From positions 3,515,278 to 3,579,277 of the forward strand of contig BFEA01000005.1 of the NCBI GenBank assembly GCA_003427395.1: DNA of 64,000 nt. Direction: 5' to 3'. A model generated the notes under the pieces. That model did not search any database, was not told where the DNA came from, and was given only the letters and a program-made list of their open reading frames with translations. The position numbers and the translations under genes were made by a program. The DNA is from Chara braunii. Taxonomy: Eukaryota > Plantae > Charophyceae. Shown here piece by piece: positions 1-57,925 of the stretch. Each line of letters opens with the position of its first letter. Within the stretch, counting starts at the first letter, position 1.

Positions 1-738
1 AACGCGTGTTTGGGACTTGATTCCTCGCGTATACTGAGCCTAAGTGATGAGCTATGGAGGAAGAAAAAGACAGTTAAAGAGGGTTGCTTATTTGATTGCA
101 AAGTTTTTGCTAGATGGAGACTAGTATTAGCAGCCCTGGCTATAGCAGAAGGAGAAAGTTCGATGGTTGTTCCTTGATCAGCGTTGGTTATGCCCTTACT
201 GCCAAAATCTGACAGGTTTGAGTCCCTTTTTCGGAGGGAGGTGGTTCCCTGCATCAGTTTGATCGCTTTGACTGTGGAAAATAGATCGGTGTGTATGTGA
301 TCATATTCATGCAAAAGGAAAAACGAGATGAGAGGAAGAGAGAGAGAGATCCTTAGTTTCAGATCCCAGGCGGCATGCATAACCTGTACTTTTTTTTGGG
401 GGGGGGGATTGTTTGAAGAGACATGAGACTGTTCTCATAAACGTGCAAAGCGGGTGAGCCAACCTCTATGGCTTCTAAATTTTGGTCAGGACTACAAGAA
501 CTACTGTTGTTCATCTGAGTGCCTAGTTTAGAGAAACTAATGACTCAGTGAGAAAGTTCTAACTAAGGATTTATCTAAACGTGTCTGCAGTGCAGCAGAT
601 TGCACTAGCTAATCATGTTGGGTGTATAGCTCAAGGACAGGTTATCTCGCACGTCGATAGTCTAAACTAGATAGACCATTGGCCTTGCAGAACGTTTATG
701 GTTAAGGCAGTCAGGTATGTGGCAATGGACTGCCGTTA

Positions 739-1149
739 GTGACCTCGAAGTCTAGCTGGTCGCAGAATGTTTGTTTGATACTGAAAATCGACATCCTATC
801 CCTGGTGGAAAAACACTACATCAAAATTCGCCAGTACGTTTTCTCAAGCCGTTTACTTAGAGTAGCGGTTAAGGAATCTCTGCAAAATAGAGGAGACATG
901 GGGAGTGAAAAAACTCTATTGGTGTCCTACATATCTTGTCAAGATAGAGTGAAGAATTTGGGGGAAGAAACACTAGAAAGCTTTCAGTGCCACATAAGGT
1001 TAATGAGAGAACATGCACTGAAAGTAGTGAAAACACAGAAAACCATTGAATATGTCATATATTTTTATGGGCCTAACGGAGAGTTGGACAGTACCTACTC
1101 GCACCTAGAAACGACTGAACAGGCCAGGACAGAGATTGAAAGGGCGTGA
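739..1149 (+). CDS. Small LTR-internal ORF of unknown function (second copy at 20324..20608)
   Basis: Open in both LTR copies (…LVSYISCQDRVKNLGEE…YFYGPNGELDSTY…); no recognisable domain. Confidence 0.35.
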   Translation: MTSKSSWSQNVCLILKIDILSLVEKHYIKIRQYVFSSRLLRVAVKESLQNRGDMGSEKTLLVSYISCQDRVKNLGEETLESFQCHIRLMREHALKVVKTQKTIEYVIYFYGPNGELDSTYSHLETTEQARTEIERA

Positions 1150-1864
1150 CTGTGCTCAAACTCCTTTCCCCCTCTTCAACGGCATGCCCGGGCAGTAACC
1201 ACTCAGTCCCCACACCACGGTACTCTGTACCGTGATACCAAGTGATCAGTGCTTAGTATGGCGTGTCAAGTACACGTCACGGGGCTGTCCAGCTGAGTAA
1301 ACGAGCCCTAAGTACGCTGCCGAGCAATCTTGTGTTCAGTGATTCCCTCAAAACAAAAACAACACCCCCCCTGGAGAATGCATCAGTAAAGGTCTATCAC
1401 CTTTTTAGTCGTCTATCCATCGGTATCCGAGTTCTGTAAAAATCAGACAGTGCTCTTAGCGGGAGACACTGACGGTTGGCTCTAAAATCTACGCTTGTAC
1501 ATGATCATGACTCAACTAATTGAATTATACAGAGACATCAGTTAGAGCCAATCAGCATTCAGCCTGCACTTGGCCAGGTTTTCTTTCGATGTGCGATCAC
1601 TTGGGTCATTAGAAAGTCTCAGTTAAGGACGAGCAACTTCCAGACAACCTTTCATTTGTATTTGGTCATATTCATTCGACAATCAGTCAACTTTCAGCTA
1701 TTACTCAGCCATCAAAAACTCAGCAGTACTCGGGTTCAGTCAGCAAAATTTCAGCAAACATTTAGTTCTCATTTCAGCAATTAATCAGTTCGCTGATCAG
1801 AAGTCAAACAACAAACAATAGTATTCAAACGACAATCAAGCAGCGGTCAGACAAGCGTTGAAAT

Positions 1865-2125
1865 CAAGGCTGGGCCGGCAACCGGCCAGATCACCTGCCC
1901 CCGTCCAACCGGCGCCGGACCGGTCCAGGGGGGGTGAACCGGCAAAACCGGATGCCCCAAAAAAATGCCCCGAATTTTTTTCTTTTTTCTTTTGATTGAG
2001 GCATCCAACTGCGCTCGTTGAGATCTGTCGAAATCCGCATTAAAACTTGAAAGTCAGGAATTTCTTGGGGGGGGCTGGGGGTTTATGGTGCAGGGTGCAT
2101 TTCATGGGTGTACAGGCCTGTAAGA

Positions 2126-2193
<68 letters not shown>

Positions 2194-2412
2194 GATCCAA
2201 GAACCCAACCAAAGATGAAGAAGAAGTACAAGAAGAAGAAGAAGACGAGGAGGAGGAGGAGGACAGCGCTGCAGAAGGGGGTGTAGATAACTCTCTCTCT
2301 CTCTCTCTCCTCCGCTCCAAGAACCCAACGAAAGATGAAGAAGAGGAGGAGGAGGAGGAGGAGGAGGACACAACGCTGTTGAAGGGGGTGTGGAGAACTC
2401 TCTCTCTCTCTC

Positions 2413-2470
<58 letters not shown>

Positions 2471-3365
2471 AAACCCAGCGAAATATGACAACGAAGAAGA
2501 AGAATGATGGCAGGAGGAAAAGAAGAAACAAGAAGACCAAGAACAAGAAACAAGAAGAAGAACCAAGGAGAACAGGAAGAACAAGAAAAAAGAAAGAAGA
2601 AGAAGGAGCCAAAGAAGAAGACGAAGAAGAAGAAGACGAAGAAAAAAAGAAGATGAAGAAAAAAAGAAGATGAAGAAAAGAAGAAGACGAAGAAAAGAAG
2701 AAGAAGAACCAAAAAGAAAAAAGAAAACCTAAACTTAAGGGTATGGGTATGGCGGTGATGGGGGGTGCGCGGCATGGCTATGTCAGTGGCGAAGCTGAGG
2801 GCGGGCGCATGTTGGGGCAACGACGGGCTGGCGGGGCTAGAGCTTGAAGTCGACGTCCGCTCGAATGAGCGCGACGTCGACCTCGTCGGCACGTAGCCCA
2901 TGCAGGCGGGGTCGCGGCGGGTGTGAGCACATGGGCTCGTTTCGAATGGCTACAGGCTGCGTTTCGAATTCGTAACGCAGCCGATTTCGACCGCCGATCT
3001 GCAGATCAGCGACCAAAATCGGCCGCGTTTTCGAATTTGAAAATCGGGGCCTGTAGGACCCCGCATTTTGACAAAAGCGCGCGGTGGATCTCCACCGCTG
3101 ATCTCTGAAGATCAGCGGTGGAGATCCATCGCGCGCTTTTGTCGGAATGCGGGGTCCTACAGGCCCCAATTTTTTTTTTGGGCGGTGGCGGCGGCCTCCC
3201 CGAGGCTGGGAGGGCACGGGGACACCTAAAAATCCTCGGAACCCCCCTCCCAGCGCAATGCGCTGGTTCGAACCGGGGGCCTGCCGGTCCAGTGGACTAG
3301 CCGGTCCGACCAGGCGGCTCCCGGTCCAAGGAGGCCCCCCCGGTCCATCCGGTGGACCAGCACCG
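1865..3365. mobile_element. Non-autonomous hAT-type DNA transposon inserted in the 5' LTR of A
   Basis: Absent from the 3' LTR, where the empty site is GTTCAAAT at 21316..21323. 8-bp TSD GTTGAAAT (1857..1864) / GTTCAAAT (3366..3373). Imperfect TIRs CAAGGCTGGGCC / CGGTGCTGGTCC. Many subterminal CCGG/GGACCGG motifs. Confidence 0.88.
2126..2730. repeat. Three units of (TC)n followed by CCAAGAACCCAAC..AAAGATGAAG and a (GAA/GAG)n tract
   Basis: Seen directly; explains the spurious low-complexity ORFs in this interval. Confidence 0.9.
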
Positions 3366-3580
3366 GTTCAAATGACATCCAATCAGCTCTCAAACAACGT
3401 CTAACTAGCATCTAAGCAACATCTAACTAGCAGTCAAACAACACTCAAGCACCGGTCAAGGATCTGTTAATTGGTGACAATTGTTGCCTGATTCAGTGAG
3501 CAAACAATTGGCTTGATCCGTAAAGGACTTATCAATAAGAGATTCAGCCTCTTTCAGCTATCAAGCAGCTGGCCAAGCAC

Positions 3581-4234
3581 ATGATAGAGATCAACCCCAT
3601 CACGATTGACCAACTAGTCCTCGACAGCCTCAACCGGGTAGCCTCGAGAGAGTGCTTCCCCTACAAATATGTCTGAATCGATGGTTTCAAGCGTGAAGAT
3701 CTGTCAATCTTCATTGCTCTCACAGAATTTGCAGAAGGTACAGTCAAAGATCTGCGGATCTATCTAAAGAAAGGGAATAAGGTTCATCCACATTTTGATG
3801 CAGTGTGGGCTGCAGCGGCCGGGTATGTGCAGTGGAAAGTTGAGAGGCTTCAGGCGAACACAAAGTTAGTTTATAGCTTCGGGCCTAAGCTTTTCACTGA
3901 CTATCCCAAACCTCCGGTCCCCTACTATCTTAGTGATGACTCTTATTGGGGTGGACTGGTGGACCTAACCAAGAGATACGTATCGCCAGCAGAGATCGAT
4001 TACGAGGCAATGACTGAGCCTTCTAAGTTTCCACATCTCAGGAGGGGAGTTTTCTCTCAGCCCTATCTCCCTACACTATGGGAGGAATTTTGTGCCATGC
4101 TTGACTTCCGTATTATGGGACTTGGCTGGAAGTGTTTGGAACTAGTGGGCTTCAGGTGGCTTTACATTCATAAGTCACAACCTCATAGAGTACGGAAACA
4201 TGGCAAGAGGCCCAGACGACAGGCAACAAAGTGA
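3581..4234 (+). pseudogene. LTR-encoded 'FPY-motif' ORF with one in-frame TGA at 3674..3676 (second copy at 21531..22163)
   Basis: ATG 3581 is in frame with ORF 3803: MIEINPITIDQLVLDSLNRVASRECFPYKYV*IDGFKREDLSIFIALTEFAEGTVKDLRIYLKKG…; paralogous to ORFs 5050 and 5470. Confidence 0.7.
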
Positions 4235-4728
4235 CAGATGAAGAGTGAAGTCCTGAGGGTTGAGTGAAGACTCTTGATTGGTACTGGCCATGCTTTTTTC
4301 CATGTGTACTCCCTGAGACTATTACGAGTTCTCATTCTTCCCTCGTTCATTTGCTCTTGTCATTGCTCGAATCAGTCGGTCTTGCTTCTTGCGTTGTTCT
4401 TGCCTGATGATTGTTATCGTGAATGATTCTGTCACAGTTCTAAAAATCAGATTGACATAATTTATGCATGCATGGCACCCCATAATTTTATGATTATTAT
4501 TTGCGTAATTATCTGCTGTTCCGAATCAAAATAAAAGATTCCCAAGACCGGGGATCGGCGAAGAGCGTAATTGAAGGGTCTCGCTCGAAGCCGGACGCAC
4601 ACAACAGGAAGGGATTTGCATTTATTTAATTCATTTTATTTATTGCAACCTCATACAAAATCCTGCGTGACAGCCTGTTGGCTTTCCGGTCGCCCGAAGT
4701 GGCTCGGCTGGAAAAAGTGCGACAAAAA

Positions 4729-4746
4729 TGGCACCGTTGCCGGGGA
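4729..4746 (+). promoter_or_regulatory. Primer-binding site, tRNA-Asp type
   Basis: TGGCACCGTTGCCGGGGA, 4 nt after the LTR end; one mismatch to the Athila-type PBS TGGCGCCGTTGCCGGGGA. Confidence 0.9.
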
Positions 4747-5049
4747 CATGAAAAGATTTTCGTGTCTGGAACGAGCCTGGGTCATCATCATCTTTGAGCT
4801 TTGATTAGGGCGTGAGAACTGCTGACAATATTATGAGCTTTATATTAAATTTATTATTTTCATTGAGTCTCGATTCTCTTGAGAATCACAGCTGCTAACT
4901 GTGTCTTGTTTCTTCCTTGTGTGAGGTACCACACTGGACCGGAGAAGGAGATTAAGATTATTGACAGAAAATCAGACTTGAATTCAGGTATGCCTCATGA
5001 ACCTATGATGCCCTTTGAATATTGAGAAGAGAAAAGAAGCATCAAGAGC

Positions 5050-5319
5050 TTGGAGATTTCATCAAGAATGTTAACTTCAGATGCATTGAGAGAACTCGTG
5101 AAAGTGACTACCAAAGGAATATTCCCCTATCAGTACGAGCATTGTTGGGTCTACCATTCTGGCAATTCGACCATCAACATAGTGCTGACTTGCTTCTTAG
5201 AGGGAGATATTTATGATATCCGTCCCTATGTCAAGAAGGGAGACTGCGACGATGGTGAGATATTCAACTGGATAGGGAAATTGCAATCCAGTCTCTTCAT
5301 GATGAGAAGGCAGATCTAA
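5050..5319 (+). CDS. Pre-gag small ORF, FPY-motif paralog 2
   Basis: …ALRELVKVTTKGIFPYQY…IVLTCFLEGDIYDIRPYVKKG; shares motifs with ORFs 3581 and 5470. Confidence 0.65.
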   Translation: MEISSRMLTSDALRELVKVTTKGIFPYQYEHCWVYHSGNSTINIVLTCFLEGDIYDIRPYVKKGDCDDGEIFNWIGKLQSSLFMMRRQI

Positions 5320-5469
5320 TTAAGCAGAAGAAGAAAGTGGAATGGGGTTTAATGCAAGTGACATATGAGACTATTCCGATCTCTCCTATACCTAACAGTT
5401 ATTGTGATCGGACTAACTGGCTGCCGATAATTAACATGGTATTGACAAGGGAGAAAATAAACAGTCGGC

Positions 5470-5838
5470 ATGAGAACTAAAGAGATTTCAGCAGAGGAAA
5501 TCAGACGGAGAAGACTGAAATTTGGCAGAGGTTCAGGCCCAGGTCCAGAGGAAGTCGAGTGTCTCCTAAAGTCACTGAACACTCTAAGCAAGAGAGAGGT
5601 GTTTCCATATGAGGTTGTCAAATATGAGATGGTCGAGAGCGGATGGGAGAAGGAACGATTATACATACTGACATTCTATTTCACAGAACTGGACGTGTAT
5701 GATGTGAGAATCTATGTTCCAAAAGAGAGAAGTGTTGAAACAGTGTATGAGAGATGTTGGGGATTTGATGAAGAAGTCGTACTAAAAGAGAAAAAGAGAC
5801 TTGAGAGAGGGAATAAATATTTTACTGGATCTACCTAA
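5470..5838 (+). CDS. Pre-gag small ORF, FPY-motif paralog 3
   Basis: Intact ATG..TAA; …LLKSLNTLSKREVFPYEVV…YILTFYFTELDVYDVRIYVPKE. Confidence 0.7.
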   Translation: MRTKEISAEEIRRRRLKFGRGSGPGPEEVECLLKSLNTLSKREVFPYEVVKYEMVESGWEKERLYILTFYFTELDVYDVRIYVPKERSVETVYERCWGFDEEVVLKEKKRLERGNKYFTGST

Positions 5839-6331
5839 TTTACTGTCTTTGATGGACTCCCCCAGCTCCTCTCTTACCTGATAGTAACCCAACGAGAGGT
5901 AATTGGTTTACAATGATAAATTTTGCATGGAAAGTGAAGAGAGTTTAAGAAGAATACTCTAAGTAGCCAGGATAACTACTGTGAGGGGCAAACTCTATGA
6001 GGTGACAGACATGATAATCCCTTTGTGATTCTGAGATATGAGACTTATGTGTGGCTTGCAAAGTTAAAGAGAAAGGTAACCTGATTACCTGGGGAAGGAA
6101 GTAAGGCAATTTGAGAGACTCCCTAACCTTTTAACTACTATTGACTTTGAGGATAGAAGAGATTGAATGTCTCTTCGAGAAGTTATTGTCGTCGTTGGTA
6201 AGGCAAGAGAGACAGACTTGACAGTAGTGTTAAAGTCTATGCTTCTTGATAATTTCGAGCATCAGTTCGAAGTCCCGGATCAGGTCTCCTTTGAGACTCG
6301 CCTCTTCTGATGATAATCATGATGATCAAGA

Positions 6332-6622
6332 ATGTCTGACCCTATTGAGCAACTAACATTTGGGGTTGTATAGGAAAGAAAAATAGTCAAGGTGGAAGAG
6401 ACTCTTCGTATCTCTGACAAAAACCTCTCTACCTTGGTTGAGATTGAATTCTTGCAACCATTCTTCGATCAGATGAGAGATTCTGCCTTGAGAATTGTCA
6501 CTGATCGGACTGAGATAAACTATTTATTAAAGGTGGTGAAAGTGAGAATTACTGAGAAAGTATCATACCACACTTCTCAGGAACGGGTCTCTCTTGCAAG
6601 AAGGATCAACAACAAGCCGTAA
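6332..6622 (+). pseudogene. Pre-gag small ORF with one internal TAG
   Basis: MSDPIEQLTFGVV*ERKIVKVEETLR…QERVSLARRINNKP; its C-terminal motif is shared with the next ORF. Confidence 0.5.
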
Positions 6623-6625
6623 ACA

Positions 6626-6892
6626 ATGCAATTTGATTATGAGATTATAGACCTGACTCGATATTTTATGATTCGGGGTACTGTAAAAGGGTATAATAGA
6701 AGATTGAGTAGGGATGATGAGAGAGAGCTGATTGAAGATTACATTAGAAGGCTGAGAAGAATTACATTGCCCTTGATCACTACTCAGTCTATTATTGCTT
6801 ATACTCTTTATGTACAAAATTATCAAGGGGTAGAACAGACAAGGGAAGAAAGAAACGAACCTGTATCCCTTGCGAAAAGAGTGAGAGATTGA
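6626..6892 (+). CDS. Pre-gag small ORF
   Basis: ATG lies 3 nt after the previous stop; ends …NEPVSLAKRVRD. Confidence 0.55.
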   Translation: MQFDYEIIDLTRYFMIRGTVKGYNRRLSRDDERELIEDYIRRLRRITLPLITTQSIIAYTLYVQNYQGVEQTREERNEPVSLAKRVRD

Positions 6893-6961
6893 AGGGCAAG
6901 AAAAAAAAGGACAAAAGTGACAGAAAGAGATAAGGAAGTATTCGAGAGAGTCTATGGTCAA

Positions 6962-8098
6962 AATGGCAGGACGAGGTAGACCGAGTTCTTCCGCATGAAC
7001 CAATGAAGAGGCCTTGGTTGGGGTTATACGGGAATTGGTTGAGAGAGTCGACACAATCAAAGGAGGGTCAGACATTGCAAGAGCAAAGAGGCCAGATGAG
7101 AGAATTTCATGTTTCAGAGGGCCTCAAGTAAATGATTTTCTGGACGAGTATGAATAATTTGGTCTTAGTTATGGTTGGACAGATAAACAACGGCTTAAAC
7201 ACCTCCTTTCTTATTGTGATACTGACTCAAGATTGCTGTTCAGGAACTGATGGAAGGTGCCACTACATGGAAAAAGGTCAAAGAGAGAATGAAAAAGGAA
7301 TTTGAGAAGGACCCAGTCCCAACTACAACCAAGGATTTACTCAACATCAGAAGAGCTAAGTATGACACTTTCAATGTTTCCCTTCAGACCTTCATCTGAA
7401 CAACAAAAAAAATCCCTTATTTGAACGAAAGTCAGAGATGCCATATATTTTTGACAAATTTTACTGACACTGAAAGGCAAACCGTTCTCAATCAAGCTCA
7501 GCACTATCCTCTCANATGGGATGAAATGGTTGCAATTGTAAGAACTCTGCCTACAGTCTCTCATAAGAAATGGTCACTAGATCAGATTAGTACTTTGGCT
7601 AACGACTGGGAGACTGAGAATGGTATGAACAGAGGAAACAATCTGAGTGCTGAGAATATTCTTCAGAAAGTGATGACTAACTTTATGCCTGCGAGGCCTG
7701 TTACCCATGCTGTGGATGACAGAGGGAAGAAGAAAGTTAAAAGTGATGAGGATGATGATTATGATGATGATGAAGACTATGGTAAGAAGGGGGATTCTTC
7801 CAGACCTAAAAAAAATGAAAAAAATGGTGACAAAAGAAACAGAGAAAGAAGAAAATATGATGAGCGTCCTAAGAGGAGTTTTGTCTGCTACTATTGTGGA
7901 GAAGGGGGTCCTCCTACCACCTATTGCAAGCCTCTTGAGGAGGATGTAAGGAGTGGGGTGGCAAAGAAGGATGCAATGGGCCATGTCTGTGATAGTTCAT
8001 GGAACAAGTTGGACCCTAGGCATCCAAGAGGTATGAGACTTCTTGCTCTTAAACATGATGAAAATATGAAGACGAAGAAAAGAGAAAGGTTAATATGA
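6962..8098 (+). pseudogene. gag: Gag of element A, with stops and frameshifts
   Basis: FRGPQVNDFLDEYE*…GWTDKQR capsid-like start; degenerate zinc knuckle CYYCGEGGPPTTYC. Confidence 0.85.
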
Positions 8099-11000
8099 AT
8101 GTTCATTTTATCATTGAAGAGTTGCCTAATGAACTAGTACAAAGAACAAGTGACCCTTATACCACGATTGAGTTGTCTCTGCAATCCTTAACATTGACAG
8201 AGTGTGAGCCTAGCGAGACATCTACAAGTGAGTCTCCATTGGGAGGGGATCCTGCTTCTCAGAATCCTTCTGAATTAGTAGAGTCCTCTTCCAATGAAAT
8301 GACTCGCTTCCTGGCTCACATGATGTCGTTCCATGGTGATTTACCCCCAGAACTCGTCATGAAACCTAGTGTCAAGCTTGACGAAGTGAGAAACCTTCAA
8401 ACTCGCATGACGCCTCAAATGATAGAGGAAAAGAAAAGGAGGAAGACTGAGGAGTCACTGATTAATATCCTTGATGATCCGGAACCGAAACTTTCACATA
8501 GAAAGAATGAACAGGGGAGAAAGAGAAAATTTATCCTCAAGAGTGACTTGGATGATGAGACAGTGATTTCTTATGTAATTACTAAAATGCTGGAAGAGAC
8601 GGAAGTGATATTGCCCTTCAAGGAGACAATGACTCTAGCACCCAAATTGAGAGAAGAGCTGAAAAAGTTGATTGAGAAGAAAAAATTGAAAGCTAATTAC
8701 TTGGGATCAGTCTTTCCCAACCAAGTGAACAGGTCACTGTCAGGTTGCAAGATGAGATTCGCAACCATGGGATATGGACACCTTACAAGTTGTATTAATC
8801 AAGTGAAGATTCTAGCCTTAGTGGACTCTGGAGCAGAGATGATACTCCTTTCTCGAAGAATGATGGAGGCATGTAATTTATCTATTGATAGAACTGCACA
8901 AAATGTACTGAGCAATATTGCAGGAGAGCTGTTTGTGGCAGGGTTCATTGATAACCTGCCTATCAGAGTTGGAACAATGACTGTGAAATTGCTGGGTTTT
9001 GTAGTGCCGGATCTGGACCATGACTGTATCTTGGGAACTCCATTCTTGCATAGGATGGAGGGGGTTCAATTATTCAACCATGAGGGGTAATCTTGGATCG
9101 GCCTACAAGATCCTGAGACTGCTCAAGAGCAAATCTTTATGGTCTGCACAAAAAGTGATTTCAAGCATCAATTGTCTGCTAATTCAATCAGAAGAGAAGA
9201 GTCAGCTGAAAGGGTTAGGAGACTAAAGGAAGAAGGAAAACAAGAAGCGAAAGAAGAGATTTCGGTGGGTATCAATCAAGTTTCAAAAATGATAAAAGCC
9301 CTTCGTAAACTCGAGGATGAGGATGAACAAATTGAAGCCTTTAAGAAGGCTGTCGAGACTGCTAAAGGTGGAAAGATAAAATTGAAATTTGCAGCGACTC
9401 ACCATTTTTTAGAAAAATAGTCACTGGGTCAAAAATAAAATATAAGCCCAAGGGGGTGAAGAAAAACTCGGTGGCAGTCCTAATAGAAAAAAATTATAAT
9501 GCAGCAATGAAAAGGGTGAGAGAGATTATTAAAGCATTGAGAGAGTCTGCAAAATTGGGGAATAGGGTCACCAGAGAGAGATTTGACACGATGAAGATAG
9601 GCTCGGATCAGTTTATCCTGCCTAGAGAGAAATAATATATCTTCAAGATGTGTCAGGACTTATCCGGTGCATTTTCCTTTAATGATGAAGAGAGAGGGCG
9701 GTTGGATGTGGATATGATCAAGATGACCAAAATTTGGACAGTTGATCATGTTTCATGGAATGATAGACCGACCAAGTATGCCGTGAAAGAAGAAGCAAAA
9801 GTTGTAAAATACCTTGACAAGAAGATTGCATCTAATGTTATTGAACCTGCTGATGGACCGTATGCTAACCACTGGTTTTGCTTTTGGAAATCAGGGGGTG
9901 GATTGAGATGGATTCAGAATCTTCAGAAACTCAACTCTGTGACGGTATGTGATGCGGGTAGTCTTCCTAATGTTGATCTCCTCTCTGAATCTTTTGCTGG
10001 TCGATGCATTTATTCTCTAGTTGATTTGTATTCTGGCTATGATCAGTTTTCCATTGATCCCACTAGCCGACCAATGACTGCCCTGCACACGCCAAGGGGA
10101 CTCATTCAAATGTGTGTGGTGCCTCAGGGTTGGACTAATGGTGTGGCGGTGGTTCAAAGGGATATGATCCAAGTCATGCAAGATATTTCTCCTGAGATAA
10201 CCAGTCCCTACATTGATGACAATCCTGTAAAAGGACCCCTGGTAAGGGATGAGACTTTGGTTGCAGGTGGAGTCAGAAAGTTTGTCTGGAACATGCTGAA
10301 GGAGTAAAGATGGTCCTAGAGAGACTTCTGACTGTCAGTGGACCAAAGTCCCTTCTCTTCCTATCTGAGGTGATCATCTTAGGCTTCAGGTGTTTCTCCA
10401 AGGGTAGGAGTCCTGACCCCAAGAAGATAGACAAGATCTTAAATTGGCCTCTTCCTCTCAAAAGAGTGACAGACGTCAGGAGCTTCTTGGGAGTCTGTGG
10501 ATTCTGGAGGATTTTTATTCCTCATTTTGCTACCCTTGCAGAGCCTCTGAGGGAAATGGTAAGGCAAGGGGTTAATCTAGCCTGAAATGATAAAAGACAA
10601 GCTGCCGCAGAAACACTACAGGAAAAACTAAAAGATGGTGGTGTGGTGCTGGGAGTACCACTTTAGGCCGATGGAGGACCGGTTGCTCTGGGTGGAGTGC
10701 TCATTCAGAAAGATGAAAATGGGAAAGAGAGGCCTCTGAGATATAAGAGTAGAACTCTCAATTCAACAGAGAGAGGTTACACCCAATTCAGGAAGGAGCT
10801 ACTGTCGATCATCCATAGCTTCAGGTGCTTCAAGCACTACATACTAGGAAGGAGATTCATCTTGAGGACTGATGCATCTGCTGTGATTGGTGCCATCAAG
10901 AAGCACCAACAAGTAGATCCAACAGTCAGCAGGTGGATCGCCTTCATCTGGACATATGATTTTAAGTTGGAAAAGATTTTCACTGAGAAGAACAGAGCAG

Positions 11001-12655
11001 ATGGTCTAAGCCGGATTGAGTGGCGAAAAGAAGAAGAAGAGGATGTAAATGGAACGCTTGAAGAATCATCCTATGTTGATAATTTTCTTAATGAGAAAGA
11101 TGATGAGGATTATGAAGCACCACACTCCTACAAGTGGAGTTTGTGGCATGAAGAGATAGACAACTGGGGAGAAATCCCTAATGCATATGTTTATGAGTCG
11201 ATTCTTAGGAAAGAAGAAGAAGATGAACCAAATGATTGGTATGCTAGAGTTAATGCAGCAGAAGTGACTGCTCATGAAATGGGGGAAAACTCTGGTTCAA
11301 AGGAAGAAGAAGAAGGAGGCGAAAAAAAGGAAGAAGATATATTTTTCATATTTGAGGAATATGATGAAAACTATCAAGAGATTGGTAAGAGGATGAAAAA
11401 GGAGCAACTAAAAGAATAGTATTGTAAGAATTCAAGGAAAAAGTTCAGACTAAAAAGAAGACATTTCTTTGTGGATGGTAAGGGAGGCCTACTTCCACTA
11501 AGGGTGGTCTGTGGTAAAGAGAGACAATTAGAGATAATTGCTGCTCTACATGAGGGGGGTGCTGGTGGCCACAGGGCTGCCGAGGCAACCTACTCTAAGA
11601 CTGTCAAACTCTACTTCTGGCCTGGCATGAGAGACATGATTTTCTGATTTTGTAAATCATGTGTGTTATGTCAGAAGAGGTCTCCCACAAGAATGATTGA
11701 ACCTTTATTTCCCACTATTCTGGTAGAGCCAGGAAGCAGAGTTCATTTAGATCTCATCACAATGCTTTTAGGCAAGGGCGGAATGAGATATATACTGAAC
11801 TTGAGAGATAACTTCTTTGGACATGTTGAGGCAAAAACTATAAAAAGAAAGACAGCCGAGCAAGTGGCTGACTGGATAGAAGAAGTTCATCTTAGGTATC
11901 CTTTTATCAGATAATTTGTCTCTGACAGGGGATCAGAATTTTGAAATGAGATCGTTAGGAGAACCACACTCAGGTTGGGTGTCAGAATTCTGTATGTGAC
12001 TACTTACCATTTTCAAGCTAATGCACTTGTTGAAAGAGGTCACAAAACTTTGAAAGATTCATTGGCCAAGTGGTGTGAAGGAAATCTCAGCAACTGACCA
12101 AAAGTGTTAAGAGCTGCTGTATATGCTGACAACATCACAGTTAAAAGAACTACTGGCTATGCACCATTTACTCTGTGGTATGACCGATATGCTACATTGC
12201 CTATTGAGAATATTGTCAAGACATGGTCAAATCAAGAAAGTGACAGGGACTATTCTATTTCAGAGCTCCTTCAGATCCGAATGAGGCAAATATCAGACGT
12301 TGGCCAGACAGTAATGGATGCTGCAGAAAGGATGACATCTAACAGATTGTCAGATCAAGAGAGATGAAACAAGAAAAGATACATAAGAAAGGAAAAACTG
12401 AAAGTTTGAGATGTTGTCCTTCTGTTTGACAGTTCCCTTGAGACACAATGGACTAAAAGGTTGGAGCCCAGATGACTTGGTTCTTATAAAATTATGGGAG
12501 GAGCAGAGGGCAAAGTTTATGAGATCTTAGAGATGGATGGATCCAGGGTTCATGACATGGTATCAAATTCAAGACTTCGTAAATTCATATTCAGAGATCC
12601 AGATCTGATTCCTACGGTAACCTCAAGGAGAGGGAAGAAAAGTCAGTCATCTAAG
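8095..12655 (+). pseudogene. pol: Pol of element A: protease, RT, RNase H, integrase; no chromodomain; fragmented
   Basis: Protease ALVDSGAE…ILGTPFL; RT DLYSGYDQ, PQGWTNG, YIDD; RNase H KELLSI…RTD…ADGLSR; integrase H..GH…C..C, HLD, SDRGSEF, ANALVERGH and a GPY/F-like LGSYKI; stop at 12653..12655. Confidence 0.95.
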
Positions 12656-14579
12656 TGAGAGAGCAGGTCCAGAGAACTGAGAGAAAAAGTATTGTAAGAC
12701 AATGAGACAGTAAAACTGAATTTTTAGCAGACAGTGATCGTTCGTGCATGGTCAATTCAACATTTCAATTCTTCAACATGTCAATTAATTTTCCGTTTTA
12801 GCAGGTAACAAAGTTAATAAGACTATACCTTTGATGTAATGCTACAGTCGATCCATGAGTCTCAGGTCCCTGAAAGTGGGGAATAACTGTGAGGCACAGT
12901 TTTTCGTGAGCATTGACGCAGTGTCAAGATCAGAGAACTCATGGATGTGGCATATCAAGAGATGTATTCAGTATTCTTTTTATGATAAAGAGGAAGCACG
13001 ATGAGCATAGAGAAGTTCAGTTCTGTCTGACTAAGAGTTGTCAGCAGAAGAACTTTGTGTTTTTGACTAAGTTATCAGCTCTCTCTAAGAAGAGGGAAGG
13101 GACCCCTCTGAGATCAACATTTCAATATTTCCTTGGGACTGACGGGATGTCTCTTGGAAAAGAAAATTCCCAGCTGAGGGAAGGGGTCTCTCTGGGACCA
13201 GCAATGAGTATACTTCTTGAGACTGACGGGACATCTCTTGAGAAATGTTTGTCCTGTTATGGGGCGAGGGCAGTTTGCTTGTGAGTTATGATACGCTTGT
13301 CTAATTATCTGTGCCTGGGGTATCTTCTTCTTTAAACCTAAGGATGGATTGATTGTCGGGGTCAGCCAGAGCCTTACCGCGGTAGGTTGCAATCTGGTGG
13401 GGTCAGCAGGTCCCCGATGCGAGTGTCGAATTCCGTAATCAACTGAGGCTCAGACTCCGGGGGTCTGGCCTATGAGGTTGAAAGGGGTCAGCTGGAACCC
13501 TACTGTAGTTAGAGGATGCAATCCAGTAAGGTTCGCCAGAGCCTTGAATCGTAGTTAGACCGAGTCCTACGTTCGAAAATCTGGGCGGGGCAGCCAGCGC
13601 CCTTGGCCAAAAACTGGTAGGTGAGCTGGTCCCTGACCGCAGTGGTCAAATCCGGGTTCGGGACAGTTTGACTGACGGGACGTCTACTGTCATAGGGTGA
13701 CCAGACCCGCTATAGTTTGGGTGTCCTGGCGAGAGTGCTAAAGGGCTTCCATACTCGAGTAGTGGGTATGCTGGTCCTTACTTGGAGGCAGGTCAAAGGG
13801 GCTGTTAAGACAAATGGTCTAACTAGTCCTAGCCTGAGGTGGGTCGGATGAGGTATGTCAGACTGACGGGACGTCTGTCATTCCTAACCAGTGGTGGGCC
13901 GAAACCAAGGCAATCAATAAGCTCCTGGGTGTAAGGAATTGTTTTATTGCGTCTATTATTTAATTATTTTATTAAATTTATTATTGTTTTATTTTATTCG
14001 GGGTTCTGGTTTGTTTACTTGCTGCTTGTCTGATAACAGTTGGGGAACCTGCTTGCTAGGGCATAGTTATTGTCTGTAGGACTCGCTGTTTTGCAGGTAT
14101 ACAAATACTTATCTGAAGTTCCCAGACCAGAGAAAAGAAAAAAGGTTTGGTATCCCCTCCCTTTTATCTGAGAAGCCGAGGAGACGCCTCATTTAGGCCA
14201 GAGAAAGAAAACAAGGGTTTGATATCCCCATCAGGTGTTTGGGAAGTTGAGAAGACGTCTCACTCAGGCCAGAGAGATAGAAAAAAGGTTTGGTATGTTC
14301 CGTCCCCAACATGGCAGACAGAGTGAGTGCCCTCGTTACGGGGACAACACCCCTGGCAAAGATGCCTGATCAAGAGCTAAGGTAACCTTCATACAAAAGA
14401 TCGGCAGCAGAGCAAGTTAATCAGGTAGACAAAAATCCTTGTTAAAATTTATTTGGTGGCCGACAAGCGGCCTTGTTCACGAGGAACCTGCATCCCCGGC
14501 CTTAAGGAAGCCAAACTCTCAGGCCTGGGATGCTATGAAGTGGACTGTGAACTGAAAATTTTACAAGTCGAAATCAGAC

Positions 14580-15047
14580 TCAGAAAGTTGAGGAGAAATC
14601 ATGCTTATATAAGACATAAAAGATGGTCGTGAGCTCAATCTGGAAAAGAAAGAGAAAAAAGAAGATACTGAAGAGAATACAATGACTAGGGTGATGAGGT
14701 GATGAAACAACACATGGGACAGAGGAAGGTGGAACTGGCACTATGGCCTTGCTCACAGCAGGGGTGGAGGGAGCTCTGGGGATATAAGGAGGAGAAGAAG
14801 CACTGGGTGTGCCGTAGCGTGTATCAATTTTTTTTCGGAGGTACTCCATCCTGTCTGGGGATGAAGTCTTCTCGTACCATCCTGTTAGTGGATAACGCGG
14901 ATAAGGCCTCTGATGTGCATAGCCTCTTGGCTCTTCTTCCTCCTCCTCTGAACTATAATCGCGCCTTGCCCTAGCCGGTGGCTCCTCCTTAGCCTTCCCT
15001 GTCCTACCTCCCCTTCCTCTACCCTGTCCGCGACGCGCCTCAGGCAT
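14580..15047 (-). CDS. Antisense ORF in the 3' internal region of element A
   Basis: ATG start followed by Arg/Gly-rich, acidic and Pro-rich segments; position and orientation typical of accessory antisense ORFs of non-chromovirus gypsy elements. Confidence 0.55.
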   Translation of the reverse strand: MPEARRGQGRGRGGRTGKAKEEPPARARRDYSSEEEEEEPRGYAHQRPYPRYPLTGWYEKTSSPDRMEYLRKKIDTRYGTPSASSPPYIPRAPSTPAVSKAIVPVPPSSVPCVVSSPHHPSHCILFSIFFFLFLFQIELTTIFYVLYKHDFSSTF

Positions 15048-15324
15048 GATGTAAGACGAGTGGCCGCAAAGAGGGAGTTACGACCTAAGAGTACTATGAG
15101 AGCAGGATCTAGACTAAGGACGAAGGAAACACTAAAGAAGGAAGAAGGAAACTACCCTGGACCTAAGGGATTACAACGCGACAAGAGGGAAAAAGGAAAC
15201 TAGCGCCGGGAGAGAGAGAACTAACGCTGAGAAGAAGGCTAAGGCAGGAGGAAGCTAGCGTCGAAAAAGAAGATTGACGCAGAGAGAGAAGGCTAACGCA
15301 AAGCTAAGAAGAAGGATGAGCGCT

Positions 15325-15339
15325 AAGAGGGGGGGCGAG
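15325..15339 (+). promoter_or_regulatory. Polypurine tract
   Basis: AAGAGGGGGGGCGAG immediately before TGTTG. Confidence 0.8.
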
Positions 15340-18300
15340 TGTTGAAGAGAAAACAGAAAACTGACTGCGCTAAGGCACAGTATGGATGCTACCGCAAGTC
15401 ACAAGTAGGAATGAATGAGAATGTTGCTTGCTTACGCTGGTTTTATACTGGAAGCGTAATCCATTTCGACCCAGCGGGGACGCTGGGTGGGGGTTTGGTA
15501 TTATGTCAAAGGGCGCAGTGTCCCGACCCTCCTCTGCGTACCAGGTCCCTGCCTGATATCGGCTCCTTGTCCCGGTGTCGTGGCCTATGGGGGGGGGCCT
15601 ATGGTCCAGAATTAAGTTCCCTGGTACCCAGGCTGTACCATGACGTGGACCGACCCTGTTTGGTGCTTACCTCAGCAAAAAGGTGCGCCACAGGGCTTTC
15701 CATTGGTCCACGCAGGCTCGGCGCTCTGCTGTACAGCAGAGCACAACCGGCCTATGACCGTGGTAGCCGCCGGGTTCGCCCTGGGACGCGGAGGAGAGAA
15801 GACTGGCTCAGTCTTTTCAACTGCGCGCCAAGTGCCCTGGTACCGAGTTATGGGTTAGGTGCAAGAAGACAGGTCATTGTAAAACAAAAGAAAAGCTAAA
15901 GCTAGGCGGCCGAGCCACACTCAGATCGTGGCCTTGTTTAAATGTGGGGTAATCCAATGATATCGGGTCACTGTACCTTCGAGTTTTTTTTTTTTTTTAC
16001 TTTTATTATTTTAACCATTATTATTAATTTTTCGATTTATAGTGATTACTATGTAGCTTGTACTAATTCTCGAGGCCAATGGATGAATTCTGGACCGCGG
16101 CTGCTGTCTGATAAGCTTGGTCGCTCAGACTTGAAGTGACTGTCAAGCCCTGATGGTTGTGATCCGGGCCAGGTGCAGAAGTGTGATAGTGGTGATTCGT
16201 GAGGCCGCCTCAACAGCGCGCCAGACTCATGTAGCCACGATGTAGAGCGAGTGCAGTGTTGAAGGTCATTGTCTGAAGGCAAAAGGGAAGGAAAAGGAAA
16301 ATGTTGAGCGTTAGGCTTTGAATTTGCACTCAAGTTTAAATCGCTGTCCTGGCTCGTCGGTATCCGGGAAAACTTCAAGCGCCATCCGTTTCTTTCTGTT
16401 TTTTTTCATCATTATTAATGGTATTATTATTATTATTATTATTACCATACCGGTTTTCGGACGCGCTTTCCTTTTCATCTTATGTCATATCGCGGGGAGG
16501 CCAACGGTTCGAATTTCGAGTTGTGGTCCAAGTTGGCTGGCCCCACTTATTTCGTCTGAGAATGAGCACCGATTGAGTGCTGCACGGTGAGGCCCCAAAA
16601 GAGGGGGCGACCCGCGGCCGCATCGGCAGGAGGCTCATCACCCCCTATAGGGGGTCAGGAACCCCCTCCTTACCATCGGGCACGGGCACCCAGTGGGAGT
16701 AGTCAGATGGCACGTTTTGAAGAGGAATGGAGATCCGTCGGTATCCCGTTATGGGACCGTCGTGTCAGATCTGTGGGTCACTTTTAGGCCAGAGAAGCGT
16801 TTCAGTGGTCGGTAGCAGAAGCCGACGCTGTGACCGTTGAGTCCTGAGTCAAGGGCACCTTTTAAATTGTTTAGTTTCAATCTATTTTATTATTCTGGAC
16901 CCTTTAAAATTTTTAAATCCAAAAAGGGGGTAAAAAGGACTAATTCGAGTCCGTTAGTTAGAACGTTGGGATTGCGATAGAGAGAGATCCTATAAGAAGA
17001 GGGAGTTGCCATTTACTGCGAGACACAGATGGTCTCGTTGTGCTATCGCAAGGAGGGAAGGACAAAGAGACGAAGTGTGCATGTAATCTGTCTGTGTGCC
17101 TCTGCTTGTGCACCTTGTAGTGGGTACTGGTCATTCGGGTCAATAGGCGGAGCTGGCGCGGTGTCTGTTGTGCTGAGCCTAGCTATGGCGTTGCACGGGT
17201 ATAGGCCCGGATACTCGTACCATCAGGCCCGGTGGAAACCCATATCGGGGGAAGGGCCCTGAAACACATTAATGCTCAATTACGACGGTGGTGATGAAGT
17301 GAGACTAAAAATCAATGTGGAGGGTGCTAAGGAGGTAGAGATGCGGACTGACGCAAAGCTGCAGGACGCGATCACGGAGGCAAAGNATCGTGCGGAGAGG
17401 CGCTGCAGGAGGGACNGAGTGACGACAAAAATGCAGGTAACTGTCTCGTATCATNAGACNGAGACCTCGATGGACANANCAGACCTGGAACAAGCCCATC
17501 TGGACCGGGACTNAGGTGGGGAGAGCGAGATGAGTGAGGCAGGGGATCGAGAGACGGACCTTCAGTCCTGGAACAGACCAGGCCAGGTCCGCAAGAAACA
17601 CCCGCTGGCAGGCCCTGTGGAATGCGGGCCCGAAGCCAGCTCGCGGCAAAATCCCAGAGGGCGAGGGAAAGGAAAAGGGGTGTGAGTCATCGATGCGCGG
17701 GGCGGACTACACGTGGCAGCCCGGGGGAGCGAGAAGAGGTCAACATGAGTGAGAGATAGGGCGGCGGTTAACAGAAGATAGCGGGAGTGCATGAGCATGG
17801 GGCGTGAGCCTACTGCGTTCGTCAGAGAAGTGTGAAACAGGTGGGCTCGTAGAGAGCGGGACATCACGAGTCTGCACGTGGTACATTCTGGCAGGAGGGG
17901 GCAGAAACACCGACGTGGCATGGTCCAGAGGGATAGAGAGAGAAAGAGAGTCAACTCGAGAGACTGGGTAGCAGAGAGAGCAGGTAAAACGGTGAGGGGC
18001 CAGGTGTTGGATGACGAGCGACACGAGAGAGGATAACTCATGCGGGCACGACTTCTTGGCGGACGACAACTGTTCAGGGTGAACTCACACCGTGTGCCTG
18101 TAAAGAGGCACAGCGGACAGGGTTGCTTGGTGAGCTTGGACTACAAGCGTTGCCCTCGATGGCGTTATCCCTGACGTCATCCCTAACGGAGGGGCAAGAG
18201 TCACGATTGTGAGAGGGGTGTTGTGACGAGCTTGCATGTTGAAGGAGGTTGACGTCAACTCATCCATACAATCCAAATCACTGATTTCGACATACCTCCC

Positions 18301-21300
18301 ATACCTGCTTTCTCGTCTCTAGGGTATGCGTAACTTAGAAGAGGTGCGTGTATAATGCAGTGTGCTATGGAGGGTAGTTGGACTCTACGCGTATGTATGC
18401 ACGTGTGTACGTGATTCAGCTGAAGCGAGGCGAGTGAAAAGTCTTTTTGTTGACGTCTTCACACCAGTTCGTGCCAGATTGGGACGCACAATGCTGAGTA
18501 GGTGAAGCAGTGTGGGAGAAGCAAAATGAGCTCCCTGAGTACCGGGTGTTCGCTTGACTAGCAAAAATCTCAGTCATGCCCTCCCTTCTCTTTTTTTGCT
18601 TCGTACTATTGGTCACTGTCACGAAGTGACTAAGGGACAATCGAACCAAAGGGAGAGACGGTGGTTGGCAAGATATATGTGAGCATACAGTGGACTCTTG
18701 AGTGGTGAAACTCGCACTAGAAACTTGTAGAAACCACTTGGAAGCTCTCCCTAAGTTTCACGTGTTCTTTTGTTGAGGGTTGTTTGTGTGGGAACTAGAG
18801 CGAGGGAGCCCACATTGATAGCATAAGCGATCACATCCGATTCTGTGGTGGGCCGTATAGTTTCGGGCGCATTATTGGTCACCAAGGCGGGCAGAAAGTT
18901 GTCTGAAGCTCGAGTTGCTAGCAGATGAGAAACTAATCTTTTTTTTTCACAAGACGTGTTGTGTACTGAGACGACCTAGACGTGTTGATGGCTGGTAAGT
19001 CAATTGAGAGGTTGAACGAGCTTTGGGCACTTTTCGTTGAGGTAAGATAGTTTGACTTCAAGCAAAAACATGACTAAGTTGATTCTCTTAAGAATGCATA
19101 TGATATGACCTTAGTGTGACCTAAGGCCGTGTGAGAGAAGATAACGCGTGTCGAAAGAGATGACACCACTAGAGCATGAAGAGTGTGATGCCTTTTCGTA
19201 TGTATTACTATTTCCCAAAGTTTTGTTGTTTTTCACTGAGGTCGCGGTTCTACTGGGCTTAACGGCGGAACAGGAAGAGTGTCCTTGCTAACTTTAGCTT
19301 GTCTCTCTGGCTGGTATGACGCCAGCAATAGGACGTGTACGGCCATATGCTTGTGTGGTCCAATGAGCCCAGATACTCGTGCGAACTCAGGATTTATGCG
19401 ACTGCGCGAGCATAAGATCATACTAGCCTATGAACGATAACGTTGGATGATGTTAAAAGCGTGTTTGGGACCTGATTCTTCGCGTATATTGAGCCTAAGC
19501 GATGAGCTATGGAGGAAGAAAAAGTCAGTTAAAGAGGGTTGCTTATTTGACTGAAAAGTTTTTGCTGGATGGAGACTAGTATTAGCAGCCCTGGATATAG
19601 CAGAAGGAGAAAGTTCGATGGTTGTTCCTTGATCAGCGTTGGTTATGCCCCAACTGCCAAAATCTGACAGGTTTAAGTCCCTTTTTCGGAGGGAGGTGGT
19701 TCCCTGCATCAGTTTGATCGCTTTGACTGTGGAAAATGAATTGGTGTGTATGTGATCCTATTCATGCAAAACGAAAAGTGAGATGAGAGGAAGAGAGAGA
19801 GAGATCAATCCTTAGTTTCAGATCCCAGGCGGCATGCACAACCTGTATTTTTTTTGGGGGGGGGGGATTGTTTGAGGGGACATGAGACTGTTCTCATAAA
19901 CGTGCGAAGCGCGTGAGCCAACCTCTACGACTTCTAAATTTTGGTCAGGACTACAAGAACTACTGTTGTTCGTCTGAGTGCCTAGTTTAGAGAAACTAAT
20001 GACTCAGTGAAAAGGTTCTAACTAAGGATTTATCGAAACGTGTCTGCAGTCCAGCAGATTTCACTGGCTAATCATGCTGGGTGTATAGCTCAAGGACAGG
20101 TTATCTCGCACGTCGATAGTCTAAACTAGATAGACCCTTGCCCTTGCAGAATGTTTATGGTTAAGGCAGTCAGGTATGTGGCAATGGAGAGTCGTTAGTT
20201 ACCTCGAACTCTAGCTGGTAGCAGAATGCTTGTTTGATACTGAAGATAAACATCCTATCCCTGGTGGAAAAACACTGCAGCAAAATTCGCTAGTACGTTT
20301 TCTCAAGCCTTCTACTTGGAGTAGTGGTTAAGGAATCTCTGCAAAATAGAGGAGACATGGGGAGTGAAGACACTCTATTGGTGTCCTACATATCTTGTCA
20401 AGATAGAGTGAAGAATTTAGGGGAAGAAATACTAAAAAGCTTTCAGTGCCACATAAGGTTAATGAGAGAACATGCACTTACAGTAGTGAGAATACAGAAA
20501 AACATTGAATACGTCATATATTTTTATGGGCCTAACGGAGAGTTGGACAGTACCTACTCGCACCTAGAAACGACTGAACAGGCCAGGACAGAGATTGAAA
20601 GAGCGTGAGTGTGCTCAAACTCCTTTCCCCCTCTTCAACGGCATGCCCGGGTGGTAACCACTCAGTCCCCACACCACGGTACTCAGTACCGTGATACCAA
20701 GTGATCAGCGCTTAGTATGGCGTGTCAAGTAAACGTCACAGGGCTGTCCAGCTGAGTAAACGAGCCCTCTGTACGCCGCCGAGCAATCTTGTGTTCAGTG
20801 ATTCCCTCAAAACAACAAAAACACACCCCCTGGAGAATGCATCAGTAAAGGTCTATCACCTTTTTAGTCGTCTCTCCATCGGTATCCGAGTTCTGTAAAA
20901 ATAAGACAATGCTCTTAGCGGAAGACACTGAAGGTTCGCTCTAAAATCTACGCTTGTACATGATCATGACTCAGCTATTTGAATTATAGAGAGACATCAG
21001 TTAGAGCCAATCAACATTCAGCCTGCACTCGGCCAGGTTTTCTTTCGATGTGCGATCACTTGGGTCATTAGAAAGTCTCAGTTAAGGACGAGCAACTTTC
21101 TGACAACCTTTCATTTGTATCTGATCAGCTTCATTCGACAATCAGTCAACTTTCAACTATTACTCTATCAGCAAAAACTCAGCAGTACTCGGTTTCAGTC
21201 AGCAAAATTTCAGCAAACATTTAGTTCTCATTTCAGCAATTAATCAGTTCGCTGATCAGAAGTCAAACAACAAACAATAGTATTCAAACGGCAGTCAAGC

Positions 21301-22671
21301 AGTGGTCAAACAAGCGTTCAAATAACATCAAATCTGCTCTCAAACAGCGTCTAACTAGCATCCAAGCAGCATCTAACTAGCAATCAAACAATACTCAAGC
21401 ACCAATCAAGGATCTATTATTTGGTAACAATTGTTGCCTGATTCAGTGAGCAAACAGTTGGCTTGATCCGTAAAGGACTTATCAATAAGAGATTCAGCCT
21501 CTTTCAGCTATCAAGCAGCTTGCCAAGCACATGATAGAGATTAACCCCATCACGATTGACCAACTGGTCCTCGACAACCTCAACCGGGTAGCCTCGAGAG
21601 AGTGCTTCCCCTACAAATATGTCTGAATCGATGGTTTTAAGCGTGAAGATCTGTCAATCTTCATTGCTCTCACAAAGTTTGCAGAAGGTACGGTCAAAGA
21701 TCTGCGGATCTATTTAAAGAAAGCGAATGAGGTTCATCCACATTTTGATGCAGTGTGGGCTGCAGCGGCCGGGTATGTGCAGTGGAAAGCTGAGAGGCTC
21801 AAGGCGAACACAAAGCTAGTCTATAGCCTCGAGCCTAAACTTTTCACTGACTATCCCAAACCTTCGGTCCCCTACTATCTTACTGATGGCTCTTATTGGG
21901 GTGGACTGGTGGACCTAGCCAAGAGATACGTATCATTAGCAGAGATCGATTACAACGCAATGACTGAGCCTTCTGAGTTTCCACATCTCAGGAGGGGCGT
22001 TTTCTCTCAGCCCTATCTCCCTACACTATGGGAGGAATTTTGTGCCATGCTTGGCTTCCGTTTTATGGGACTTTGCTGGAAGTTTGGAACTAGTGGGTTT
22101 CAAGTGACTTTACATTCAGAAGCCACAACCTCAGAGAGTACGGAGACATGGCAAGAGGCCTAGACGACAGGCAACAAAGTGACAGATGAAGAGTGAAGTT
22201 CTGAGGGTTGAGTGAGGACTCTTGATTGGTACTGGCCATGCTCTTTTCCATGTGTACTCGCTGAGACTATTACGAGTTATCATTCTTCCCTCGTTCATTT
22301 GCTCTTGTCATTGCTTGAATCAGTCGGTCTTGCTTCTTGCGTGGTTCTTGCCTGATGATTGCTATTGTGAATAATTCTGTCACAGTTCTCAAAATCAGAT
22401 TGACATAATTGATGCATGCATGGCACCCCATAATTTTATGATTATTATTTGTGTGATTCTTTGTTGTTCCGAATCAAAATAAAAGATTCCCAAGACCGGG
22501 GACAGGCGAAGACCGTAATTGAAGGGTCTCGCTCGAAGCCGGACGCACACAACAAGAAGGGATTTGCATTATTTAATTCATTTTATTTATTGCAACCTCA
22601 TACAAAATCCTGCGTGACAGCCTGTTGGCTTTCCGGTCGCCCGAAGTGGCTCGACTGGAAAAAGTGCGACA
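15340..22671 (+). repeat. 3' LTR of element A (~7.3 kb)
   Basis: Begins TGTTG after the PPT and ends CGACA (imperfect inverted termini). The 3' 3.2 kb match the 5' LTR. The start is inferred from the PPT. Candidate TATA box CCTATAAGAAG at ~16989. Confidence 0.8.
17185..17685 (+). pseudogene. LTR-encoded protein (…LKINVEGAKEVEMR…) with an in-frame TGA at 17260..17262
   Basis: ATG ~200 nt after the candidate TATA box; a clear homolog with mostly synonymous changes lies at 40370..40585 (minus). Confidence 0.75.
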
Positions 22672-25457: not shown

Positions 25458-25475
25458 TGGCGCCGTTGCTGGGGA
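25458..25475 (+). promoter_or_regulatory. Primer-binding site, tRNA-Asp type, of family B
   Basis: TGGCGCCGTTGCTGGGGA, 2 nt after the LTR end. Confidence 0.88.
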
Positions 25476-40100: not shown

Positions 40101-40365
40101 CCCTAAGGGCGGTGACAACCCCTTAGGGAAGGCAAGATGTGCCCTGCGGGAACCTATCTTGTTGTAGGGGACTGGGGGAAGTACAGCTGACGCACCTGGC
40201 TAGAGCGGCGAAGGGACGATGCGCCTGCCACCGTCTAGACGGTTCGCGGGATGTTATGCATCGTTCCCAAGTTGTCTCCGTGATTTTGTTTTGTTTTACT
40301 CCTACGTGACATGGCCGGGAGGGTTCCCTTGCTTTGTAAAAAGATGGGAGTCGATGCGCTCCACA
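37145..40365 (+). repeat. LTR B2 (either a solo LTR or the 3' LTR of element B)
   Basis: 3' 2.1 kb homologous to B1, ending …GCGCTCCACA. Putative start TGTAGGG follows a purine-rich tract. Flanks are AGGT / ACGT. The 5' boundary is uncertain. Confidence 0.65.
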
Positions 40366-42663: not shown

Positions 42664-42700
42664 CTGTCTCTTATACACATCTAGATGTGTATAAGAGACA
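42664..42700. other. Nextera mate-pair junction adapter (assembly artefact)
   Basis: CTGTCTCTTATACACATCT followed by AGATGTGTATAAGAGACA (back-to-back Tn5 mosaic ends), ~95 nt from an N gap at 42533..42569. Confidence 0.97.
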
Positions 42701-57289: not shown

Positions 57290-57925
57290 GTACGGAGTTC
57301 GTCTGTCCACTTCATCCACAAAAAAGGACTCGGGCAACGGGAAGACTGTTGAGGGACCCGGTCAAGGCAACCCATTGGTGAGCAATGGACCTGAGACATG
57401 AACGATGGGTCTACATTAAGGACCGTACGAAGGACGACACCTCAATTGGGTGGAAATGGGAAAGAATTGAGGAACCAAACTTGGGGACGCGCCCCCTGAA
57501 CATGGAGGACGTCTGTCCACTTCATCCACAAAAAGGACTCGGGCAACGGGGAGACTGTTGAGGGACCCGGTCAAGGCAACCCATTGGCGGGCAGTGGACC
57601 CGGAACATGAACGATGGGTCTACACCGAGGACCGTATGAAGGATGACAGCTCAATTGGGTGGAAATAGGAAAGAATTTGGGAACCAGACTTGGGGACACG
57701 CCCCCCGAACACGGAGTACGTCTGTCCACTTCATCCACAAAAAAGGATTCAGGCAACGGGGAGAATGTTGAGGGACCCGGTCAAGGCAACCCATTGGCGA
57801 GCAGTGGACCCGGGACATGAACGATGGGTCTACATTGAGGACCGTACGAAGGACGACAGCTCAATTGAGTGGAAATGGGAATGAATTGGGAAACCAGACT
57901 TGGGGATGCGCCCCCCGAACACATG
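57290..57925. repeat. Three ~210-bp tandem repeats within the LINE ORF1 region
   Basis: GTCTGTCCACTTCATCCACAAAAAAGGA at 57301, 57511 and ~57720. Confidence 0.93.

Follow-up and report, generated by a model that had tools for sequence, protein, structure and literature searches.

Three frames on the forward strand of a 64,000-nucleotide stretch of Chara braunii DNA (the window) are, judging from their sequences, old paralogues of a single domain, here called domain A, and their host is, on the same kind of evidence, a decayed high-copy Ty3/Gypsy retrotransposon. One of them (A1) lies in the long terminal repeat (LTR) and the other two (A2 and A3) lie past the primer binding site (PBS), an arrangement that the initial annotation had described and that our analysis upholds. 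Together they very probably represent a real family of accessory genes. The explanation that we favor, with a probability of roughly 45%, is that the A paralogues belong to an accessory-gene set of the element, with leader copies that would be translated from element RNA, proteins that would bind single-stranded RNA or cDNA, and an LTR copy that would be disabled.

Three copies of domain A and their homologues

A1 spans 3581–4234, with its ATG at 3581, a TGA at codon 32 (3674–3676) and then 185 open codons up to 4231; its C-terminal extension is 85 aa long, with a basic tail at the end. The counterpart A1' in the 3' LTR runs from 21531 onward and has the identical TGA at 21624–21626, confirming that the stop is common to both LTRs. 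A2 spans 5068–5480 and is recognized by a profile of outside homologues and by its likeness to the homologue P0008: its open frame (5026–5316) is broken near 5274, and up to 5480 the domain continues in a different frame, with E 7e-13 to P0008. A3 spans 5470–5948 (found by profile and by alignment with the homologues), with an 11-nt overlap with the A2 stop at its start; its open frame, 5470–5838, ends in a premature stop (5836–5838), and the domain carries on to about 5948 past a frame break near 5859–5868. All A copies within the window are thus broken. The peptides quoted in the initial annotation are all present at the positions given, as are the starts of A1 and A3, whereas the first in-frame ATG of A2 is at 5068 and not at 5050. 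Within the A1 frame, a stem-loop is found in both LTRs (3830–3910 and 21780–21860; z -3.7 and -3.4 against 60 shuffles, the best of 16 windows in each).

The frames had been called diverged paralogues with similarity at the protein level, and both descriptions hold. Pairwise BLASTP gave E values of 3e-9 (A1/A2), 1e-9 (A1/A3) and 2e-6 (A2/A3), and none of the three scores was matched in 5000 shuffles. The proteins share about 30% identity; blastn found no likeness of their DNA (best E 0.11). An independent profile, made from five outside homologues alone, matches A1 at E 1e-18 and A3 at 4e-34. A2 is matched in two parts (2e-7 and 2e-10), and no unrelated background stretch scores better than E 8.4.

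Such homologues are few: a search of 1.84 billion representatives returned four matches at E 0.001 or better, to which a profile search and a cluster look-up added one each. Five of the six outside homologues are unnamed ENA proteins of 121–164 aa, with unbroken frames on contigs of 0.5–0.7 kb and 58–90% identity to their nearest kin; part of the Chara braunii protein GBG64722.1 matches A3 at 76% over 83 aa. In a tree in which the A2 row was short and its placement unsure, A3 groups with its orthologues P0006, P0011 and P0007 at 97/100 support. It is 51–70% identical to these compared with about 30% to its own paralogues, so that the duplication predates the divergence of these elements.

The outside homologues also set the length of the domain, about 125–130 aa, or twice the motif quoted earlier, half of the domain having been missed. 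At its C-terminal end is a P-x-P-P...W part, retained in A2 and A3 behind their frame breaks. The quoted F, E, D, R and Y are indeed invariant, in the pattern F-x-E-x4-D-x-R-x-Y, whereas its 'KK' is not conserved and a later invariant W was absent from it. The family is new in the sense of being unnamed, as proposed: no domain A member matches Pfam, PHROG or PDB. The structure predicted from a 10-row alignment (pLDDT 77.7, pTM 0.70) runs in the order helix, three antiparallel strands, long helix, strand, helix, with the invariant F-x-E-x4-D-x-R-x-Y on the strand 2–3 hairpin; a fold comparison of this model gave a small alpha/beta fold with no clear neighbor in the fold lists. No transmembrane stretch was detected (the top 19-residue hydropathy in five proteins is 0.69–1.15), and most domain A proteins are near neutral in charge, with a pI of 5.6–8.7. 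Domain A is thus, as modeled, a soluble alpha/beta domain of about 125 aa.

The retrotransposon and its row of leader genes

The 5' LTR occupies 1–4724, its start lying upstream of the window, as judged by its match to the 3' LTR and by the ends of sister contigs, 83 + 62 of which (run X1) exit at 4724/4725 into unrelated flanks. Because 1–1864 and 3366–4724 match 19456–21323 and 21316–22671 at 94% (K2P 0.062 and 0.060), the LTR must be at least 3.2 kb long, with an insertion of 1.5 kb (about 1865–3365) in its 5' copy; a length of 1.36 kb is too short, and a second ORF lies inside the repeat. The 3' LTR, 19456–22671, with a 5' end that is not fixed, carries the corresponding B0' (20357–20608) as well as A1'. 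By motif, an AATAAA at 4530–4535, about 300 nt past the A1 stop and with a counterpart at 22478 in the 3' LTR, is a candidate poly(A) signal. The 1865–3365 insertion is GC-rich, with CT microsatellites, an internal hairpin at about 3020–3170 and near-identical 8-bp flanks, and looks like a non-autonomous DNA transposon.

Four nt past the LTR end lies the PBS (4729–4746), which we take to be of the tRNA-Asp type; the window has two matches to it, compared with none in 100 shuffles, and the second adjoins the LTR of another element. A decayed gag and pol follow at 6954–12659, with Pfam matches to protease (gag-asp_proteas, 7e-10), reverse transcriptase (RVT_1, 2e-10), RNase H (RT_RNaseH, 2e-21) and integrase (Integrase_H2C2, 1e-8); gag has no Pfam match and is placed by its position and a CCHC-like remnant. 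The gag-pol region is full of stops, and the RT has no relative in viral_contigs. The protease-RT-RNase H-integrase order, the two LTRs and the PBS adjoining the 5' LTR are features of a Ty3/Gypsy element. That the element is high-copy is seen in 13,068 and 12,510 contigs from two DNA runs that map to the 4.1 kb of 3366–7500, most of them at less than 95% identity; sister contigs cover all 30 bins of this region in number. About 6.8 kb (12660–19455) separates the integrase from the 3' LTR as far as the latter is known. Within it, a purine run that leads into TG (17663–17680) is a candidate polypurine tract, in which case the LTR would be about 5 kb long, and an antisense frame at 15077–14583 has no Pfam match.

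The leader between PBS and gag holds a packed row of about six ORFs of 47–160 codons, in the order A2, A3, C, D, B1, B2, in which neighbors overlap or are separated by 0 to about 20 nt in this copy. The sense ORFs A2, A3, B1 and B2 are separate from gag-pol and each is under 250 codons. B1 (6332–6622) has one internal stop, and B2 (6626–6892) has its ATG 3 nt past the B1 stop; their mutual score was not reached in 2000 shuffles, and the B2 model is helical and of low confidence (pLDDT 59.6). A third member, B0, lies in the LTR (898–1149, in a frame open from 706) and is unbroken from its ATG at 898; probably helical, it is joined to B2 by a score reached in none of 2000 shuffles for the 5' LTR copy and in 3 of 2000 for the 3' copy, and is weakly alike to B1, that score being reached by 42 and 51 of 2000 shuffles for the two LTR copies. 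Family B therefore appears to be laid out like A, with one LTR copy and two copies before gag, on evidence thinner than that for A. The two families are unrelated in sequence. Neither this second family of the same layout nor the packed row had been noticed in the initial annotation. C (5927–6166), which is badly decayed and uncertain, and D (6167–6310), of 47 aa and with an ATG that directly abuts the C stop, are proposed from translation and spacing, and no relatives of either were found. AUG is not depleted in the leader of this copy (47 seen at 5001–7000 compared with about 47 expected).

In the explanation that we favor, A1–A3 would be copies of one domain within the accessory-gene set of the element, and the leader copies would likely be translated from the RNA of the element itself, in stop-start succession before gag, with termination-reinitiation suggested by the spacing of the ORFs. 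The two LTR copies may have arisen when leader genes were copied into the repeat during reverse transcription. That both families are spread over LTR and leader in the same way suggests a movement of genes between leader and terminal repeat.

Possible function and the state of the copies

PC4/YdbC proteins, which bind single-stranded DNA (ssDNA), have a spacing of residues like that of F-x-E-x4-D-x-R-x-Y. We compared domain A with 35 PF02229 proteins, a lead chosen after the motif was seen. In hhalign, the domain A hairpin aligned with the PC4-family hairpin over 27–28 columns at a probability of 35–46% and a score of 26–28 (maximum 15.1 in 100 column shuffles), and the probability fell to 18–22% and 2.5% with subgroups. 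Among 804 frames, 40 of them labeled PC4, such frames made up 8–9 of the top 10, at less than 10 bits. The likeness thus consists of a beta-hairpin of 27 residues, spaced as aromatic-x6-D-[ILV]-R-x-aromatic. However, no domain A member matches Pfam PC4 (PF02229) and the domain has no significant family or fold match; it lacks the fourth-strand KG[IV] motif past the hairpin, it has an extra N-terminal helix and a C-terminal part, and its predicted strand order is another one, PC4 itself being described as four strands followed by a helix (PMC7549692). In 16 PC4-bearing genomes, none of the four matches reported was the PC4 gene. We regard the likeness as weakly indicating a mode of working rather than membership. 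PC4-like proteins are reported to bind ssDNA on their beta-sheet (PMC7549692, PMC7145681), and the A proteins could possibly bind the single-stranded RNA or cDNA of the element via the conserved hairpin, as a weak motif match suggests. Nucleic-acid binding is, tentatively, the likeliest single role of domain A, closely followed by protein-binding counter-defense.

How the copies fare in sister elements differs between leader and LTR. On the evidence of 40 of the 1223 variant rows, the A3 stop is private to this insertion (about 97% of sister depth in run X1 and 85–89% in X4 differ at 5836–5837), and at the A2 break at 5274 a sister indel is seen in four contigs of X1 and one of X4. The A1 TGA, however, is the majority state in close sisters: with 59–67 contigs per run, in four runs from at most two samples of one study and in unitigs whose collapse can hide variants, no alternative letter reaches 20% across 3656–3700, while the 15 places in 3575–3700 that vary at 20% or more all fall in 3613–3655. 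Eight of these 15 variants, which precede the stop, are synonymous compared with 4.3 expected, a weak sign of coding constraint. A stop that prevails in this way makes it probable that the copy in the LTR is dead or recoded; we lean towards its being dead in this subfamily, the simplest reading being a recent loss in the subfamily master copy, and in our preferred explanation it is probably a disabled duplicate. The earlier claim of old duplications maintained by selection accordingly stands as to their age and coding constraint, but not for the LTR copy as a gene, given its sister-wide TGA.

Other explanations can be weighed against these data. The domain A proteins could instead be protein-binding counter-defense factors (anti-silencing factors or host-factor decoys), multiplied for several host targets, a possibility to which we give somewhat under a one-in-three chance. 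A live and recoded LTR copy, in which readthrough or bypass of the fixed TGA limits the output of a full-length 217-aa accessory product of U3 type, would account for the 185 codons that stay open past the stop, whose chance at local composition is about 3e-5 and which have no in-frame Met for about 110 codons; it would also fit the 45 nt around the stop without a variant at 20% or more, next to 15 in the preceding 43 nt, and the candidate poly(A) signal downstream. Should LTR copies be functional, every solo LTR of a repeat-rich algal genome would be a potential gene. However, a recent loss in the master copy accounts for the open frame equally well, the lack of variants is subject to the unitig collapse and narrow sampling given above, a search for a hairpin 3' of the stop, in 80-nt windows starting at 3650–3730, was negative (z -1.7 to +1.1), and the stop context is, to our knowledge, not a known readthrough motif. 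We therefore consider a live copy unlikely. More improbable still is a virus-like accessory operon, in which the two families are split between LTR and a polycistronic leader, A is a re-wired PC4-type ssDNA/RNA-binding domain, the LTR copy is live via a read-through stop and solo LTRs supply the product in trans.

Finally, the whole gene set could be a relic, captured or once useful and now hitch-hiking in a dying family, as the broken A copies and the many stops in gag-pol might suggest. The changes in A1 between the two LTRs look neutral (11 synonymous versus 18 non-synonymous codons), and RNA reads on the element are few (1,245 of 16.7 million in run X7; in X6, 28 of 8.9 million). They map in both directions, some run into the flanks, and nearly all come from other copies. 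Post-insertion decay is, however, expected for any copy, and the absence of the A3 stop from sisters, the unbroken frames of the five outside homologues and a protein likeness that outlasts DNA likeness all speak against this reading, so that we hold a relic to be very unlikely.

Relation to known systems and neighboring elements

Extra ORFs of this general class are already known in plant Gypsy elements, and it is the unnamed domain and the row of small ORFs that constitute a new form. Extra sense ORFs at the 5' side form the eORF-5'F class (Neumann et al. 2019, PMC6317226), and ORF0 of rice Retrosat2, RIRE3 and RIRE8 is one such ORF (PMC3485330). As described there, these resemble the present genes in lying in sense between PBS and gag, in encoding a lineage-restricted protein without outside relatives, in diverging fast and in being accompanied by LTRs over 3 kb. 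ORF0, however, is described as single, whereas here a packed row holds two duplicated families, each with an LTR paralogue, and no sequence relation of A or B to eORF-5'F/ORF0 was found (no Pfam match). The survey is reported to have taken in only ORFs of at least 250 codons (PMC6317226), and small-gene rows like this one would therefore have escaped it. A frame wholly within the LTR, and hence doubled in each insertion, is also known from the sag/naf ORF in the U3 of MMTV (PMC9412291); that virus, however, is a mammalian retrovirus with a known immune function for the protein, whereas here a plant-lineage retrotransposon has two LTR ORFs with leader paralogues, the A copy bearing a stop common to sisters. 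Additional ORFs are reported to be mostly 3', with their function an open question and a proposed role like that of retroviral accessory proteins (PMC7264820). The env-like examples described there (Grande gene23, RIRE2, Retand) are likewise conserved extra genes of unknown function but are found downstream of pol, before the 3' LTR, and often run antisense or encode transmembrane segments, unlike the A genes, which are in sense, 5' or LTR-borne, and apparently soluble.

In the literature that we searched, nothing was found on the domain A family, on small paralogous ORFs arranged in rows or on paralogy between LTR and leader; the tables of eORFs that belong to PMC6317226 may be relevant here. 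Small, apparently soluble and well modeled, with unbroken homologues (P0008, P0011) and few invariant residues, domain A makes the question of function testable.

Several other elements share the window. About 150 nt past the 3' LTR begins a second LTR element, with LTRs at 22832–25455 and 38227–40365 that are 86% alike and a PBS of the same type at 25458–25475; neither A nor B is present in it, and it does not resemble the first LTR. Penelope-like elements have been reported from Chara braunii (PMC8557442). The reverse-strand segment 43484–49105, in which 628-bp direct repeats (97%) surround a gag-like CCHC frame and RT/GIY-YIG-like frames, is probably one of them; three of its frames lack a Pfam match at E 0.1 and a fourth has one sub-threshold match. 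At 42660–42700, a partial copy of the 628-bp repeat ends beside an N run in an adapter-like stretch, presumably resembling a Nextera/Tn5 adapter and probably an assembly artifact. The LINE-like element at 56400–61620 is decayed and has a frame near 59530–60500 that looks like an endonuclease, and the window closes with a satellite of about 60/120-bp units in at least 17 copies (62970–64000).
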